Assembly (NCBI GenBank): GCA_963769885.1
Contig: CAVYNH010000006.1
Coordinates: forward strand, 416,001 to 480,000
Origin: Methanobacteriota archaeon
GTDB lineage: Archaea > Thermoplasmatota > E2 > DHVEG-1
Direction: 5' to 3'
Length of the DNA: 64,000 bases
Position numbers and translations under genes: made by a program. Within the stretch, counting starts at the first letter, position 1. Each line of letters starts with the position of its first letter. Positions 4,870-40,791 of this stretch are shown one piece after another. Below the pieces are notes generated by a model, which saw only the letters and a program-made list of their open reading frames with translations, made no database searches and was not told the DNA's origin.

Positions 4870-4940
4870 CAGCCCCGGGCGGATTTGAACCGCCGACGTT
4901 GGCTCCAAAGGCCAAAATGTTGCCACTACACCACGGGGCT
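4870..4940 (-). tRNA. tRNA-Gln (anticodon UUG)
   Basis: AGCCCCG TG GTGT AGTGGCA ACAT T TTGGC CTTTGGA GCCAA CGTC GGCGG TTCAAAT CCGCC CGGGGCT G; full cloverleaf, A1-U72, discriminator G, no encoded CCA. Confidence 0.95.
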
Positions 4941-4968
4941 CCACGCAGCAAGGGAAAACAGCCACAGG

Positions 4969-4980
4969 ATTTTAAGGTTT
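4969..4980 (-). promoter_or_regulatory. Putative BRE/TATA for tRNA-Gln(UUG), overlapping the glnS stop codon
   Basis: Minus strand AAACCTTAAAAT about 30 nt upstream of the tRNA 5' end. Confidence 0.5.
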
Positions 4981-6654
4981 AGCACCCGCCGCGCCCTGGA
5001 TCTTCCCCCAGGTATCCCGCAGCTCCACCGACCGATTCAACACCAAACGCGTCGCAGTCGACCCCGGATCCACGCAGAAATACCCCAGCCGCTCGAACTG
5101 GAACCGGTCCAATGGCTTGCAGTGACGGACCGTCGGCTCGACCTTACAGCCATGCAGGACCTCAAGAGACCGCGGGTTCAGGAACTCCTTGAAATCCGCC
5201 CCCTTCTGATCCAGCGGGTCGCGTACCGTGAACAGCTTGTTGTAGAGCCGGACCTCCGCCTCCACCGCATGCCGGGCAGAGACCCAATGGATCGTGGACT
5301 TCACCTTGCGGCCGTCCGGGGCGTACCCACCCTTGGTCTGCGGGTCGTACGTACAGCGCAACTCCACGACCCGACCATCCTTCTTCACGACATCCTTGCA
5401 GGTGATGAAGTACGCGTACCGCAATCTGACCTCGCGGCCGGGCGCGAGCCGATAGAACTTCGGCGGCGGCTGCTCCATGAAATCCTCCTGCTCGATGAAC
5501 AGGGTCTTGGAGAACGGGATCCGTCGGGACCCCATGGACGGGTCCTCGGGGTTGTTGACCGCCTCGACCTCCTCGGTCGTCTCAGGATAGTTCTCGATCG
5601 TCACCTTCAACGGCCGCAGCACACCCATGTACCGCGGTGCCGCCCTGTTGAGGTCATCGCGGATGCAGTGCTCCAGGAACTCGTAGTCGACGATGCTGTT
5701 GAACTTCGCGACCCCGATGCGCTTGGAGAACAACCGAATCCCCGAGGGCGAGTACCCGCGCCGGCGCATCCCGGAGATCGTCGGCAGCCTCGGGTCGTCC
5801 CACCCGTTGACGTACTTCCCCTCGACGAGCTGCAGCAGCAGCCGCTTGCTCATCACCGTAAAGGTGAGGTTCAGCCGTGCGAACTCGATCTGCTGCGGAT
5901 GATACACCCCGAGCGCGTCCAGGAACCAATCGTACAGCGGCCGATGGTTCTCAAACTCCAGCGTACAGATGGAATGCGTGATCCGCTCAAGGGAATCCTC
6001 CAGCCCATGCGCCCAGTCGTACATCGGGTAGATACACCATTTATCCCCCGTGTTGTGGTGCGTCGCATGCAGGATGCGGTACATCACCGGGTCCCGCAAG
6101 TTCAGGTTCGGATGGTTCATGTCGATCTTCGCACGCAGGACCTTGGAGCCGTCCGGGAACTCCCCCGCCTTCATGCGGCGGAACAAGGAGAGGTTTTCCT
6201 CGATGGAGCGGTCGCGGAAGGGACCATTGATCCCGGGCTTGGTGAGCGTGCCGCGCAGGTCAGCGATCTGGTCTGCGGTCAAGTCGTCGACATAGGCCTT
6301 CCCTTTCTTGATGAGGTCCTCGGCGTACGCGTACATCTGGTCAAAGTAATTCGAGGCGTAGAACAGCCGGTCCTGCCAGTCGAACCCCAGCCATTTCACA
6401 TCGGTGATGATGGACTGGACGTACTCCTCCTCCTCTTTCGCGGGGTTCGTGTCATCGAACCGCAGGTTGCACTTCCCGTGGTACTCCTCGGCGATCCCGA
6501 AGTTCAGGCAGATGGACTTCGCATGGCCGATGTGCAGATAGCCGTTCGGTTCTGGGGGAAACCTGGTGTGTACGCGGCCCTGGTACTTCCCTGACTGAAG
6601 GTCCGCGTCGATGATTTCCCGGATAAAATCCCTGCTCGCTTGCTGTTCGCCCAT
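4972..6654 (-). CDS. glnS: Glutamine--tRNA ligase, bacterial type (no YqeY extension)
   Basis: [122 protein letters not shown]; 560 aa. Confidence 0.95.
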
Positions 6655-6695
6655 CTGACACCGACTCCCACATCAGACTCACTAGGAGTAGACAG

Positions 6696-6767
6696 CAGCC
6701 CCGAGCGGATTCGAACCGCTGACAAGAGATCCAGAGTCTCCTATGTTAACCGCTACACCACGGGGCT
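6696..6767 (-). tRNA. tRNA-Gln (anticodon CUG)
   Basis: AGCCCCG TG GTGT AGCGGTTA ACAT A GGAGA CTCTGGA TCTCT TGTC AGCGG TTCGAAT CCGCT CGGGGCT G; cloverleaf, A1-U72, discriminator G. Confidence 0.95.
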
Positions 6768-6807
6768 TTCACGACCAATGAAACAAGGTGCAGATAAAAA
6801 AACTCAC

Positions 6808-6820
6808 TATATAACCTTTC
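6808..6820 (-). promoter_or_regulatory. BRE+TATA promoter for tRNA-Gln(CUG)-glnS
   Basis: Minus strand GAAAGGTTATATA about 40 nt upstream of the tRNA. Confidence 0.6.
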
Positions 6821-6920: not shown

Positions 6921-7541
6921 TTAGCTGAGGGCGAAAACGTCGTCAGGGATATCGTCGAAGGAGATGTTGGTCAGCAAAACAGTGGTGGTCATATTTGGGC
7001 CGAAGATGGCGGGGGTGGATTCGATTTTGAGGGGAAGGCCGTTGTCGTTCCAGAGCCAGGCGCGAACGGTGGTGTTGGTCACGTGTGTGCCGGTTTGGTA
7101 TTGAACGATGGTGGTTTGTTTGCCGTCGATGACGTCGGTGCCGACCTGGGTGAGGTGGGCGGTGAGCATCTGGTTGGTGCAGTTGCCGACAATGTTGGGG
7201 ATGGGTATGGGAGAGTTGTCCCAGGTGTGGGTCATGATGTTATACATGTAGGTGCCGTTTGGGGTACTGATATAAGTGGCCGTATAATTTTCGACGTATT
7301 CTTGTTGTTTCATGTAGTGAGGTTTTTGCCAGAAGTGAGAGGTGAGGGTCACGTTATTGGTGGTGCCTATGGTGTCGGTGGTGACGATGGTGGTCATGTC
7401 GTAGTTGATAGTGGTGATCTGGTTGGCCTTGCTTACGAGGGTGGTGAGGGGGTTGGCTTGGGTGTTGGTCTGGGTGCATCCAGAAAGGAGAAGGATAGCG
7501 AGGAGGAGGGCTACACCGAGGAGTGCGTGTGTGCGTGGCAT
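6921..7541 (-). CDS. Lipoprotein, LolA/DUF4412-like fold
   Basis: Lipobox-like LLLSGC; GTDVIDGKQT...AWLWNDNGLPLKIE...DIPDDVFAL pattern. Confidence 0.65.
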   Translation of the reverse strand: MPRTHALLGVALLLAILLLSGCTQTNTQANPLTTLVSKANQITTINYDMTTIVTTDTIGTTNNVTLTSHFWQKPHYMKQQEYVENYTATYISTPNGTYMYNIMTHTWDNSPIPIPNIVGNCTNQMLTAHLTQVGTDVIDGKQTTIVQYQTGTHVTNTTVRAWLWNDNGLPLKIESTPAIFGPNMTTTVLLTNISFDDIPDDVFALS

Positions 7542-7604: not shown

Positions 7605-8552
7605 TTATGGTCTGGTGAACAGGATTCCACCGTCGGAGGTGGAAGCGGTGAGGGTGTCGGCGTTGGTGACGTAAATGGTTATCCCCCGGCGGTATGCGCT
7701 ACTGACCCAGATGATGTAGTCCGCGGGCTCCGCGGGGTGGGCGAGCACATTGGGGATCAGGATCCCGCTGATGTTTTCCCCTGATTCGAGGAGTATTTCC
7801 ACGTGGTCGCGGGTCTGGGTGATCGTCGCGTTCTCGACTTGGGTGGCGTTGCCGTCCACGTCGTAGAAGGTCGCGGTCCAGTTCCCTGCGATGACCGGGT
7901 AGGTCGCCGCAGGCTCGATCTTGAGGAGGGTGGCGGTCACGTCGTCGAGGTAGTAGGTGCGGTTGGTCTCCCAGGTGCCCCAGACGCCGATGGCGGGGTA
8001 GAGGAGACCGGTGTCGGTGGTGGTGACGAAGTCGTAGGATTTCGTGAGCCAGGTGAGGGTGCCGTTGTCTTGGCCGTTGTCGGTGGTGTCTTGGTAGGTG
8101 AGGTCGGCTTTTGTGGGGGGCTGGGTGGTGACGCCGGTGATAATGGTGAAGGCGTTTACGCCGTAGTCCATGGAGGCGAGCTGGTAGGTGACGGTGATGT
8201 AGTATTGGGTGTTGGGTTGTGCGTGGATGGCTCTCTGGATCCAGATCTTGCCGGCGTCGTTGAGGTTGTTGAGGTAGAGTTCGAGGCTGCGGTTGCCGTC
8301 GTAGGACTGGTTGCTTGTGGGGGTGATCCACCAGGTGATGGGGGGGTCGAGCAGGTCGGTGCCGTTGGCGGTCCAGTTGTCCATGGAGGTTTCGAAGGAG
8401 CTGTAGGTGGTGTTCGCGGCCGGGGGGTTCTGCACGAGGGGCTGGGTGGCTGGTCTGCTGGTGAGGATGAGGGTGACGGCGGCCGAGGTGATGGAGAAGA
8501 TGATGAGGCAGCTGGCGAGGATGGCTTTGGTGACGAGGCGCATGATGACCAA
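7605..8552 (-). CDS. Secreted/membrane-anchored hypothetical protein with carbohydrate-binding-like beta domain
   Basis: N-terminal hydrophobic helix; SFET...SYDGNRSLEL...YYLDDV pattern. Confidence 0.6.
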   Translation of the reverse strand: MVIMRLVTKAILASCLIIFSITSAAVTLILTSRPATQPLVQNPPAANTTYSSFETSMDNWTANGTDLLDPPITWWITPTSNQSYDGNRSLELYLNNLNDAGKIWIQRAIHAQPNTQYYITVTYQLASMDYGVNAFTIITGVTTQPPTKADLTYQDTTDNGQDNGTLTWLTKSYDFVTTTDTGLLYPAIGVWGTWETNRTYYLDDVTATLLKIEPAATYPVIAGNWTATFYDVDGNATQVENATITQTRDHVEILLESGENISGILIPNVLAHPAEPADYIIWVSSAYRRGITIYVTNADTLTASTSDGGILFTRP

Positions 8553-39087: not shown

Positions 39088-40791
39088 CTACTTGTGGGTG
39101 AACACCCCGGTCAGCGTAGGCTCCCGGGCGTCGATCCGCACGAACCCGTACCGTTCGAATTGGACGATCTCCCCGACGGGGAGGCCGCCGACCGCCTGCT
39201 CCGCGTACCCCTCCGTGCTCTGCAGACTCTCAGGGTTGAACTCTTCATGGACGAAGAGGGACCCTGGGCGGACGATGGTCATCCGGATAAACTGGTCCGT
39301 CGTCCACTGCAGTTTCACGGACTCCGGCAGGATCGTCTCACCAGCGTACCCGCCGGCCAGCTCCTTGCCGGCATGCGTGAGCTTGATGTTGCAGAGGTCC
39401 TTGAGCCGGAAGACATCCCCTTTCTTGAACCGAGCGACATCCTCCCGCGGCACATAGAACACGGACGAAAGCGCGATTTCCCGCTCGCCCATCGCAGCCG
39501 CCGGATGCAGCCGAACCCGCTTCACCTTCAACGGCAGACCCGAGACGGTCAGTTTCACCGGATCCGGCACGAAAAAGAACCGCTTCACCCGAGGATCCAG
39601 AATCTTCCGATTCGCAGCCTCGACCAGGCTGAAGTCCACCACCGACTCCACCTTCGAAGTCCCCTGGGACACGACGAACTGGCGGATCGCCTCCGGCACG
39701 ATCCCCCGACGACACAGACCGCGCAGCGTCGGCAATCGCACATCATCAAACCCGGAGACCAGCCCCTGCTCGATGAGCGGCTTGATCTTCCGCTTCGACA
39801 CCGGCATCCCCTCGATGGAGAGCCGCGCGAACTCCATCAACTGAGGCTGCCGCAGCCCGAGCTTCTCCAGGATATGGAAGTACACCTCATCCCGCAGCTC
39901 ATACTCCTTCGTCCGGAACGGATGCGTCACCCCACTAAGGCTATCCTCGACCGCCCCCGCAAAATCATACGTCGGCCACAGCCGATACCGTGTCCCGGTC
40001 AATGGATGGGGGGATTCGATCACCCGGAACAACGTCGGGTCACGCATCGCCGTGTTCTTACTCGCCATATCGCCCTTCAGACGCAGGATCCCGTTCTCCA
40101 CCGATCCATCGATTAGCCCGTCGAGCAGCGCCCTCGAATCCTTGCGAGTCCGACACGCACAAGCCATCCCCTTGAACCGCGACTCACGAATCACCTCGGA
40201 AAGACAGGAACAGACATACGCATCACCCTGAACAATCAGCTGCCGGGCAAGCTCATAGTGCCGCGGAAGATGATCGGAGGTGTTGTATTCCTCATCCCAC
40301 GCGACCCCCAGCCACCGCAGGTCATCCCTCTGCGCCTCGTAGAACTCCTGCTGCGCATTCTCCGGGTTCGTGTCATCAAACCGCAAGATGAATTTCCCGT
40401 CGTACATCCGCGCGTACTCGCTGTCGATGATCGCCGCCTTCGCATGACCGATATGTAAATACCCGTTCGGCTCCGGCGGAAACCGGGTGACCACCCGCCC
40501 CTTCTGCGCCTCAGGCAGCGGAGGCAGCGCATACTCGCGCTTCTTCCTCTCCCGATGGAGGAGCTCAGGGGCAATCGCGGTCAGCTCCGTCCGCTGCTGC
40601 TCCACCGTCAACGCGTTGACCGCGGCGACGGCCTCATGGACAACGGGCATGATCTCCTTTGGGGAGACGGTGGTGCCTTTGAAGGCAGCGATGACCTTAC
40701 CGGCGACCGCCTTCTCGTTCGCCTTCCCGTCGAACTGCACGGCGTTCTGCAAGGCGTACTTACGTGCCTCATCGAAAAGCGAGCCGGGCAT
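39088..40791 (-). CDS. gltX: Glutamate--tRNA ligase, archaeal type
   Basis: ARKYALQNAV archaeal N-terminal domain, [40 protein letters not shown]. Confidence 0.93.
   Translation of the reverse strand: MPGSLFDEARKYALQNAVQFDGKANEKAVAGKVIAAFKGTTVSPKEIMPVVHEAVAAVNALTVEQQRTELTAIAPELLHRERKKREYALPPLPEAQKGRVVTRFPPEPNGYLHIGHAKAAIIDSEYARMYDGKFILRFDDTNPENAQQEFYEAQRDDLRWLGVAWDEEYNTSDHLPRHYELARQLIVQGDAYVCSCLSEVIRESRFKGMACACRTRKDSRALLDGLIDGSVENGILRLKGDMASKNTAMRDPTLFRVIESPHPLTGTRYRLWPTYDFAGAVEDSLSGVTHPFRTKEYELRDEVYFHILEKLGLRQPQLMEFARLSIEGMPVSKRKIKPLIEQGLVSGFDDVRLPTLRGLCRRGIVPEAIRQFVVSQGTSKVESVVDFSLVEAANRKILDPRVKRFFFVPDPVKLTVSGLPLKVKRVRLHPAAAMGEREIALSSVFYVPREDVARFKKGDVFRLKDLCNIKLTHAGKELAGGYAGETILPESVKLQWTTDQFIRMTIVRPGSLFVHEEFNPESLQSTEGYAEQAVGGLPVGEIVQFERYGFVRIDAREPTLTGVFTHK

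Follow-up and report, generated by a model that had tools for sequence, protein, structure and literature searches.

Two tRNA-Gln genes with G73 and a short D-loop flank a bacterial-type glnS gene in a Thermoplasmatota archaeon

In the archaeal two-step route to glutaminyl-tRNA, as described for M. thermautotrophicus, a glutamyl-tRNA synthetase (GluRS) that is non-discriminating works together with the amidotransferase GatDE (PMC2330236, PMC2978374). GatDE recognises the A1-U72 pair and the D-loop of tRNA-Gln, and archaeal tRNA-Gln is not charged by the glutaminyl-tRNA synthetases (GlnRS) of E. coli and yeast (PMC2330236); reviews of 2008 and 2022 describe archaea as being without GlnRS, with tRNA-Gln identity (A1-U72, A73) as the barrier (PMC2330236, PMC9499178). 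Glutamine identity involves the anticodon, the acceptor stem (1-72 and 3-70), the discriminator and the 10-25 pair (PMC9976931). Here we describe a locus of a Thermoplasmatota archaeon (assembly GCA_963769885.1, contig CAVYNH010000006.1, positions 416,001 to 480,000) in which a bacterial-type glnS gene is enclosed by two tRNA-Gln genes carrying G73. This 64-kb stretch, referred to below as the window, belongs to a contig of 785 kb; the genome measures 2.09 Mb, at 92.4% completeness. A literature search returned no paper describing this cassette, the sole mention of an archaeal GlnRS being a passing one, for Heimdallarchaeia.

We consider it probable that an ancestor within Thermoplasmatota acquired a GlnRS once from bacteria and that both tRNA genes serve it as dedicated substrates, the whole forming one archaeal-style unit with retuned tRNAs. 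A parallel is GluRS2 of Helicobacter pylori, a case of a duplicated synthetase co-evolving with its tRNA, in which a second synthetase is dedicated to tRNA-Gln via the acceptor stem while the other enzyme keeps tRNA-Glu (PMC2777447). There, however, the second enzyme is a GluRS paralogue that still depends on an amidotransferase, whereas the present locus would combine an imported GlnRS with a duplicated and retuned tRNA. An earlier reading of the same letters (the original prediction) had seen in both tRNAs a hybrid of archaeal A1-U72 and a G73 discriminator.

The cassette tRNAs and their synthetase

Exactly two tRNA genes were called by ARAGORN in the window, both of them tRNA-Gln on the minus strand, and glnS lies between them:

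4870-4940, minus strand: tRNA-Gln(UUG) (ARAGORN; RF00005, 63.2 bits), with G73 at 4870
4972-6654, minus strand: glnS, coding for a bacterial-type GlnRS of 560 aa without a YqeY tail (Pfam PF00749, PF03950 and PF20974)
6696-6767, minus strand: tRNA-Gln(CUG) (6695/6696-6767 in ARAGORN; RF00005, 61.1 bits), with G73 at 6696

With scores above the RF00005 gathering score of 29 bits and the anticodons UUG and CUG, both qualify by model as glutamine acceptors. They share the acceptor stem AGCCCCG/CGGGGCU, which gives A1-U72, G2-C71 and C3-G70, followed after U72 by an unpaired G73; this assignment is sound, since the base preceding position 1 is unable to pair with G73. Also common to both are G10, a U13-A22 pair, U35 and G36, G37 and A38 in the anticodon loop and a 4-nt variable region, while CCA is not encoded in either gene. 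The D-loop is 8 nt long in tRNA-Gln(CUG) (AGCGGUUA) and 7 nt long in tRNA-Gln(UUG) (AGUGGCA). The anatomy given in the original prediction (A1-U72, G73, C3-G70, G37/A38 and D-loops of 7-8 nt in both genes) was thus confirmed by ARAGORN, by RF00005 and by reading of the minus strand.

Comparison with the substrates of the two-step route revealed a mixture of states. A1-U72, G37 and the 4-nt variable region are as in tRNA-Gln of the GatDE type; in contrast, position 73 is G in place of A in both genes, and the 9-nt D-loop ending in CAA with a non-Watson-Crick 13-22 combination is replaced by a loop of 7 or 8 nt without CAA and by the Watson-Crick pair U13-A22. Measured against E. coli tRNA-Gln, the likenesses are G73, a weak 1-72 pair, G2-C71, G10, U35 and G36. 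The differences are the orientation of the 1-72 pair (U1-A72 there, A1-U72 here), the 3-70 pair, by which the E. coli combination of G2-C71 and G3-C70 is present only in its first half (C3-G70 here), and positions 37 and 38 (A37 and U38 there, G37 and A38 here, with G37 found likewise in tRNA-Gln of the planctomycete order Pirellulales).

The glnS product aligned over model positions 1-524 of 524 to TIGR00440 with 722.8 bits (cut-off 425.8), and matched GlnRS structures of P. aeruginosa (7e-216) and E. coli (2e-208). It is colinear over the full length with the enzyme of the E. coli GlnRS/tRNA-Gln complexes (PDB 1GTS, 1QTQ, 1O0B), with the HIGH and VMSKR motifs intact in the alignment, and its Leu137 corresponds to E. 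coli Leu136. It differs from the E. coli system in its archaeal host, in the placement of glnS between both of its tRNAs and in Asn236, which aligns with E. coli Asp235. In the E. coli enzyme Asp235 reads the region of the 3-70 pair, and the D235N mutant mischarges.

The whole genome holds only these two tRNA-Gln genes. No GatE match was found in it (at 92.4% completeness this absence is not proof), and there was no match to GatB, which the same GatE model does pick up in control bacteria; the sole GatD-like match in the genome scored 37 bits and is asparaginase-like, not a real GatD. On the available sequence, GlnRS appears as the only visible route to Gln-tRNA, and since GatDE and the A73 set are gone, direct charging would be the sole route here. 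Together with the intact motifs and the TIGR00440 score, this argues for the view of the original prediction that glnS is functional and not a passenger.

Distribution of glnS, gatE and position 73

Relatives (40 at first, then a sample of 401 genomes across the phylum) were searched for glnS, for gatE and for tRNA-Gln with G73 or A73, a genome being called glnS-positive when it had a match above the TIGR00440 cut-off. Genomes, contigs, loci and families are referred to by our own handles (G, C, L and f, respectively). A73 is the usual state in the phylum, as the original prediction held for archaea, with the A73 pattern in 312 of the 401 genomes and G73 in 74.

Within f1, the window's own family (54 genomes in the sample), the two states of position 73 are sharply divided. 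At least one G73 tRNA-Gln was found in 34/34 glnS-positive genomes as against 0/14 glnS-negative, gatE-positive ones, which have only A73 tRNAs with a 9-nt D-loop; three further genomes with G73 carry glnS fragments at contig ends or in pieces. Of the 21 f1 genomes with orthologous GatE (E about 1e-190 to 1e-215), 20 have an A73 tRNA-Gln, and of the 33 that lack this GatE, 3 do. In this family, then, the test proposed in the original prediction came out as expected, G73 tracking glnS and A73 tracking gatE.

The two-step route is still present in relatives, including genomes that hold both systems and both tRNA sets. At least eight such dual genomes were identified (G018, G153, G163, G244, G274, G341, G346 and G393), and GatD was confirmed in all three of those checked. 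In the congeneric species G213 and G241, GatD, GatE and the A73 tRNAs are all missing together. A trace of such a loss is seen in G373, which has glnS and no gatE match: its A73-type tRNA-Gln(CUG) is a decayed pseudogene (locus L261, G373:C24:20329-20400, minus strand), mutated in the 5' strand of the acceptor stem and in the anticodon stem, and ARAGORN calls no gene there. At two further loci, L214 (G346:C90) and L215 (G393:C158), a tRNA-Gln(UUG) with A73 and a 9-nt loop and another with G73 and a short loop stand in tandem just downstream of glnS, an arrangement that looks like a preserved duplication intermediate.

Several relatives, G022 and some G73-only genomes with GlnRS (G015 and others) among them, have, besides, a second GatDE pair of divergent sequence, whose genes are divergently transcribed and code for 645 aa (GatE) and 488 aa (GatD); it lies at L258:3574-7033 in G015 and at G022:C1:36778-38652. 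Both of its proteins score above the NCBIfam cut-offs, about 150 bits below orthologous GatE. This pair was not found in the window's genome.

Across the phylum, a true G73 tRNA-Gln was present in 53/75 glnS-positive and 21/326 glnS-negative genomes; five of these 21 are f1 members with assembly gaps and 14 belong to clean gatE-positive lineages. G73 is therefore enriched with glnS and not required, and its use as a strict glnS marker was ruled out by this sample. The original prediction, which had taken G73 as a sign of co-adaptation to the synthetase and would have been undone by an equal frequency of G73 without it, survives as to the enrichment; as to exclusiveness it does not, since G73 is neither sufficient (f39, f41, f35, one f11 genome) nor necessary (f40, f46, f4, f22). 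G285 and G260, in which only GluRS and neither glnS nor gatE was found, were treated as assembly gaps, and G003, a single-contig relative with a G73 tRNA-Gln, was treated as uninformative, having zero matches to the glnS/GluRS family or the GlnRS protein. Every other genome shows at least GluRS, and the oddity of G003 may come from a frameshift-rich assembly or some other fault.

A number of these observations weigh against the tRNAs being dedicated, retuned substrates of an acquired GlnRS. G73 occurs with GatE and a 9-nt CAA D-loop, and without glnS, in f39, f41, f35 and G269 (the f11 genome). A73 is the state of the CUG tRNA immediately upstream of glnS in 4/4 genomes of f40, where no gatE match was found, and likewise in f46, f4, f22, G055 (f13) and G148 (f9); because the f40 cassette tRNAs keep A73 without a gatE match, G73 cannot be essential for this GlnRS clade. 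Most glnS-positive genomes of f24 have only A73 tRNAs, unlinked to glnS, and a divergent GatE, and several of the G73-only genomes (G015 and others) hold the divergent GatDE pair. In addition, the genome counts were taken over related, non-independent genomes without a species tree, and the grouping with Pirellulales considered below was chosen post hoc, from a tree already viewed.

The same exceptions bear on the possibility that position 73 of Thermoplasmatota tRNA-Gln drifts neutrally between the two bases, and that in f1 it goes along with glnS through shared ancestry of one cassette and not through adaptation. Both states are seen with and without glnS across the phylum, homologous glnS-linked tRNAs of f13 have G73 in one genus and A73 in the other, and archaeal glnS is monophyletic, so that many co-occurrences stem from one event. 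Such drift nevertheless fits poorly with the contrast of 53/75 against 21/326 genomes and with the separate gain of G73 by tRNA-Gln(UUG), which derives from the host UUG tRNA (tandem copies in G346 and G393) and not from the CUG lineage. The discriminator is, moreover, a strong kinetic determinant in E. coli (PMC9976931). G196 is the sole f9 genome without gatE, and its UUG tRNA departs from that of its congener G148 in nothing but the change of A73 to G73. This and like cases point to selection, and on balance we hold drift to be an unlikely explanation.

Most other f9 genomes retain GatE and have G73 in the glnS-linked CUG tRNA and A73 in the unlinked UUG tRNA. The two glutamine codons are apparently divided between the pathways in these genomes (e.g. 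G376:C13:2674-4414 and G376:C4:29289-29328).

D-arm classes and the origin of enzyme and tRNAs

About 105 distinct tRNA-Gln sequences were inspected in full, and they fall into two classes by the D-arm. The GatDE type has a 9-nt D-loop ending in CAA (9 nt in 40/40 sequences of this class), a mostly non-Watson-Crick 13-22 combination and always A1-U72. The glnS-linked type has a D-loop of 7-9 nt without CAA and, in f1, a U13-A22 pair. In this set of distinct sequences, which was deliberately enriched for G73 cases, the non-CAA class comprised 53 sequences with G73 and 12 with A73, and the CAA class 31 with A73 and 9 with G73. The D-arm change marks glnS-linked tRNAs more consistently than G73 does, and this change, in D-loop length and makeup and in the 13-22 pair, had been overlooked in the original prediction. 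A G1.U72 pair was confined to the non-CAA class (12/65 against 0/40); in the cassette tRNAs of relatives the 1-72 position is sometimes G.U and never G-C. This fits a release from GatDE, the reader of A1-U72, with a weak pair still being kept.

The GatDE-type D-arm (9-nt CAA loop, U13.U22) together with A73 is nearly identical to the corresponding parts of this genome's own tRNA-Glu(CUC), so that the cassette tRNAs have moved off exactly those features once common to tRNA-Gln and tRNA-Glu.

As for the enzyme, the 28 archaeal GlnRS sampled, which come from eight families, group together as a single clan among bacterial sequences, with an SH-aLRT of 100. The closest relatives found are from Pirellulales (Planctomycetota; loci L092, L094 and L097), with 67-71% identity, and a tree joining the archaeal clan to these three sequences was 46 lnL better than a quick free tree (p-AU 0.72). 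Pirellulales as the nearest group is suggestive only, the grouping having been named after the first tree was viewed. Asn at the E. coli Asp235 position (N236) is present in 28/28 archaeal enzymes, His181 in 27/28 and Glu219 in 28/28, and among 80 bacterial relatives the three residues occur together only in the Pirellulales sequences L092 and L097. The idea of residues specific to archaeal GlnRS was accordingly rejected: a strict filter left only E219, and H181, E219 and N236 are all common to Pirellulales. These residues were probably inherited from the donor side and did not evolve in archaea.

The Pirellulales tRNA-Gln(UUG) (L232, L233 and L235) combines C3-G70 and G37 with U13-A22, a D-loop of 8 nt, a variable region of 4 nt and G73, all of them states also found in the cassette. 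It departs from the cassette in U1-A72 and A2-U71, and in the loci read the Pirellulales glnS is not flanked by tRNA-Gln. C3-G70 and G37, considered merely archaeal in the original prediction, are therefore found on the bacterial side too, along with G73 and with enzymes that have Asn at the position of E. coli Asp235. Because Pirellulales tRNA-Gln has both C3-G70 and G37, this GlnRS lineage would have been matched beforehand to archaeal tRNA-Gln, and C3-G70 would be tolerated because the lineage has Asn at the position of Asp235. In the few bacterial pairs that could be read, an Asp there is accompanied by G3-C70 in the tRNA, and other residues by C3-G70. A separate case was noted in Bacteroidales (L144, L153 and L158), where GlnRS carries Pro in place of Leu136 and either Val or Ile in place of Asp235, and where a tRNA-Gln(CUG) with C3-G70 and A73 lies just downstream of glnS; enzyme and tRNA may thus covary inside bacteria as well.

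The cassette tRNAs themselves are of archaeal descent. In f1, what sets the UUG cassette tRNA apart from its host UUG counterpart comes down essentially to the D-arm, position 73 and a few bases of the anticodon stem, and the changes at position 73, position 22 and in D-loop length all go toward the donor-like state. Import of the tRNAs from bacteria along with glnS might be considered on the strength of their bacterial look (G73, U13-A22, an 8-nt D-loop) and of the tRNA-Gln genes that lie beside glnS in some bacteria (Anaerolineae, Bacteroidales). Bacteria, however, have U1-A72, and the acceptor stem, A1-U72, T-arm and anticodon loop of the cassette tRNAs agree at almost every base with the host A73 type. 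Import is highly improbable in this light, and was ruled out on the host-like acceptor stem and T-arm and the orientation of A1-U72. Host derivation, with differences from the GatDE-type tRNAs of relatives at specific positions, had been proposed in the original prediction and agrees with the sequence comparison. The lineage of tRNA-Gln(CUG) upstream of glnS is seen in f1, f9, f12, f13, f40, f42, f46, f48 and f4. The f46 GlnRS nests among f1 sequences whose tRNAs share the G1.U72 of f46, and GlnRS and the linked CUG tRNA seem to move together.

What the changes in the tRNA are for may be viewed in two ways that are not mutually exclusive. G73 and the D-arm could serve as anti-determinants against GluRS (and GatDE), making loss of GatDE safe, with GlnRS largely indifferent to them; we give this a chance somewhat short of even. 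The cassette tRNAs differ from tRNA-Glu(CUC) exactly at the D-arm and position 73, GlnRS evidently copes with A73 cassette tRNAs in f40, and the D-loop is reported to be read by GatDE (PMC2330236). A search for a change on the GluRS side after GatDE loss came to nothing: between six dual species and four congeners that have lost GatDE there was no consistently substituted column, and the four variable columns were unshared, which mildly favours discrimination being seated in the tRNA. Against this stands the occurrence of G73 with GatE and without GlnRS in f39, f41 and f35, which shows no general block to the two-step route, and the changes bring the cassette tRNAs closer to the one served by the nearest bacterial GlnRS group, a direction that would fit positive recognition.

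Layout of the unit and replacement of the two-step route

Three further features of the window concern expression of the cassette and its neighbour in charging:

6655-6695, minus strand: 41-nt spacer from tRNA-Gln(CUG) to the glnS start, with a GGTG Shine-Dalgarno-like element
6807-6819, minus strand: BRE/TATA-like motif AAAGGTTATATAG, from direct reading, some 40 nt upstream of tRNA-Gln(CUG)
39088-40791, minus strand: archaeal GluRS of 567 aa (PF00749, PF03950 and PF20974), below the glnS cut-off

As the host is archaeal, promoter regions were sought by direct inspection of the upstream DNA and a sigma-70 scan was not used. Motifs of the AAAG-(G)TTA-AATA type lie at the same distance upstream in G001, G012, G002, G023, G393 and G015, and the motif at 6807-6819 may act as the promoter. 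The tRNA-glnS spacers of relatives measure 30-45 nt, with GGTGA or GGAG ahead of ATG, and leave no room for a promoter of their own plus a leader. At the other end, tRNA-Gln(UUG) begins 31 nt past the glnS stop codon, and the identical three-gene order is found in at least 21 f1 genomes. The tRNA-glnS-tRNA unit is thus likely to be co-transcribed, the tRNAs then being processed out.

The unit has ordinary neighbours, coding for a protein with a PKD domain and for products that match no Pfam family, and no integrase or transposase gene was found among the genes adjoining the cassette. Directly upstream of it, two open reading frames on the minus strand (6921-7541, 206 aa, and 7605-8552, 315 aa) have no Pfam match. 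Elsewhere in the genome, ARAGORN reported a 91-nt tRNA with a four-base anticodon (C6:618985-619075) and an 85-nt tRNA-Gly(UCC) (C4:320776-320860), which are probably either intron-containing or false calls.

On the reading we prefer, that of dedicated tRNAs serving an acquired GlnRS, an ancestor within Thermoplasmatota would have taken up a bacterial glnS in a single event, and the resulting unit would run from promoter through tRNA-Gln(CUG) and a Shine-Dalgarno-led glnS to tRNA-Gln(UUG). The cassette tRNAs would have retained the host-type acceptor stem with its A1-U72, along with G37 and a variable region of 4 nt, and undergone three changes: A73 to G73, U13.U22 to U13-A22, and a 9-nt CAA D-loop to one of 7-8 nt without CAA. 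The weak 1-72 pair would have been kept because a GlnRS with the Leu136 equivalent must open it. Beyond the observed anatomy, gene content, co-distribution and phylogeny, we propose that G73 and the D-arm would raise the efficiency of GlnRS and/or block GluRS. The GluRS of the window would have to avoid glutamylating the cassette tRNA-Gln now that no amidotransferase is seen, and we presume that it discriminates in this way.

More tentatively, and with slightly less confidence than doubt, the locus may represent one stage in a stepwise replacement of the two-step pathway, the stages of which can still be seen. A Pirellulales-like GlnRS would have crossed the identity barrier, the donor's own tRNA-Gln already having C3-G70 and G37 in common with archaeal tRNA-Gln. 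A host tRNA duplicated beside glnS would then have been altered in its D-loop and at positions 22 and 73, giving a natural, insulated second tRNA/synthetase pair for the same amino acid. In some living species this pair would exist side by side with GluRS and GatDE; loss of GatDE and of the older tRNA set would have followed, repeatedly.

What is added here to earlier accounts are the phylum-wide exceptions, the D-arm classes, the evidence from co-loss and the pseudogene, and the Pirellulales-like match. G73 is often, and not always, part of the adjustment; of no lesser apparent weight are the D-arm and the Asn that the enzyme has in place of Asp235. The explanation of the missing archaeal GlnRS by a tRNA identity barrier is now testable with natural material: an archaeal GlnRS clade with its travelling tRNAs, relatives on the old route, dual-route species, and minimal pairs with position 73 as their one difference. 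Two tRNA-Gln sets kept naturally separate are suggested by the dual genomes, a point of interest to genetic-code engineering. If the stepwise replacement is true, these archaea would show in nature how a cell comes by a new synthetase/tRNA pair, and would supply an orthogonal pair ready for use.

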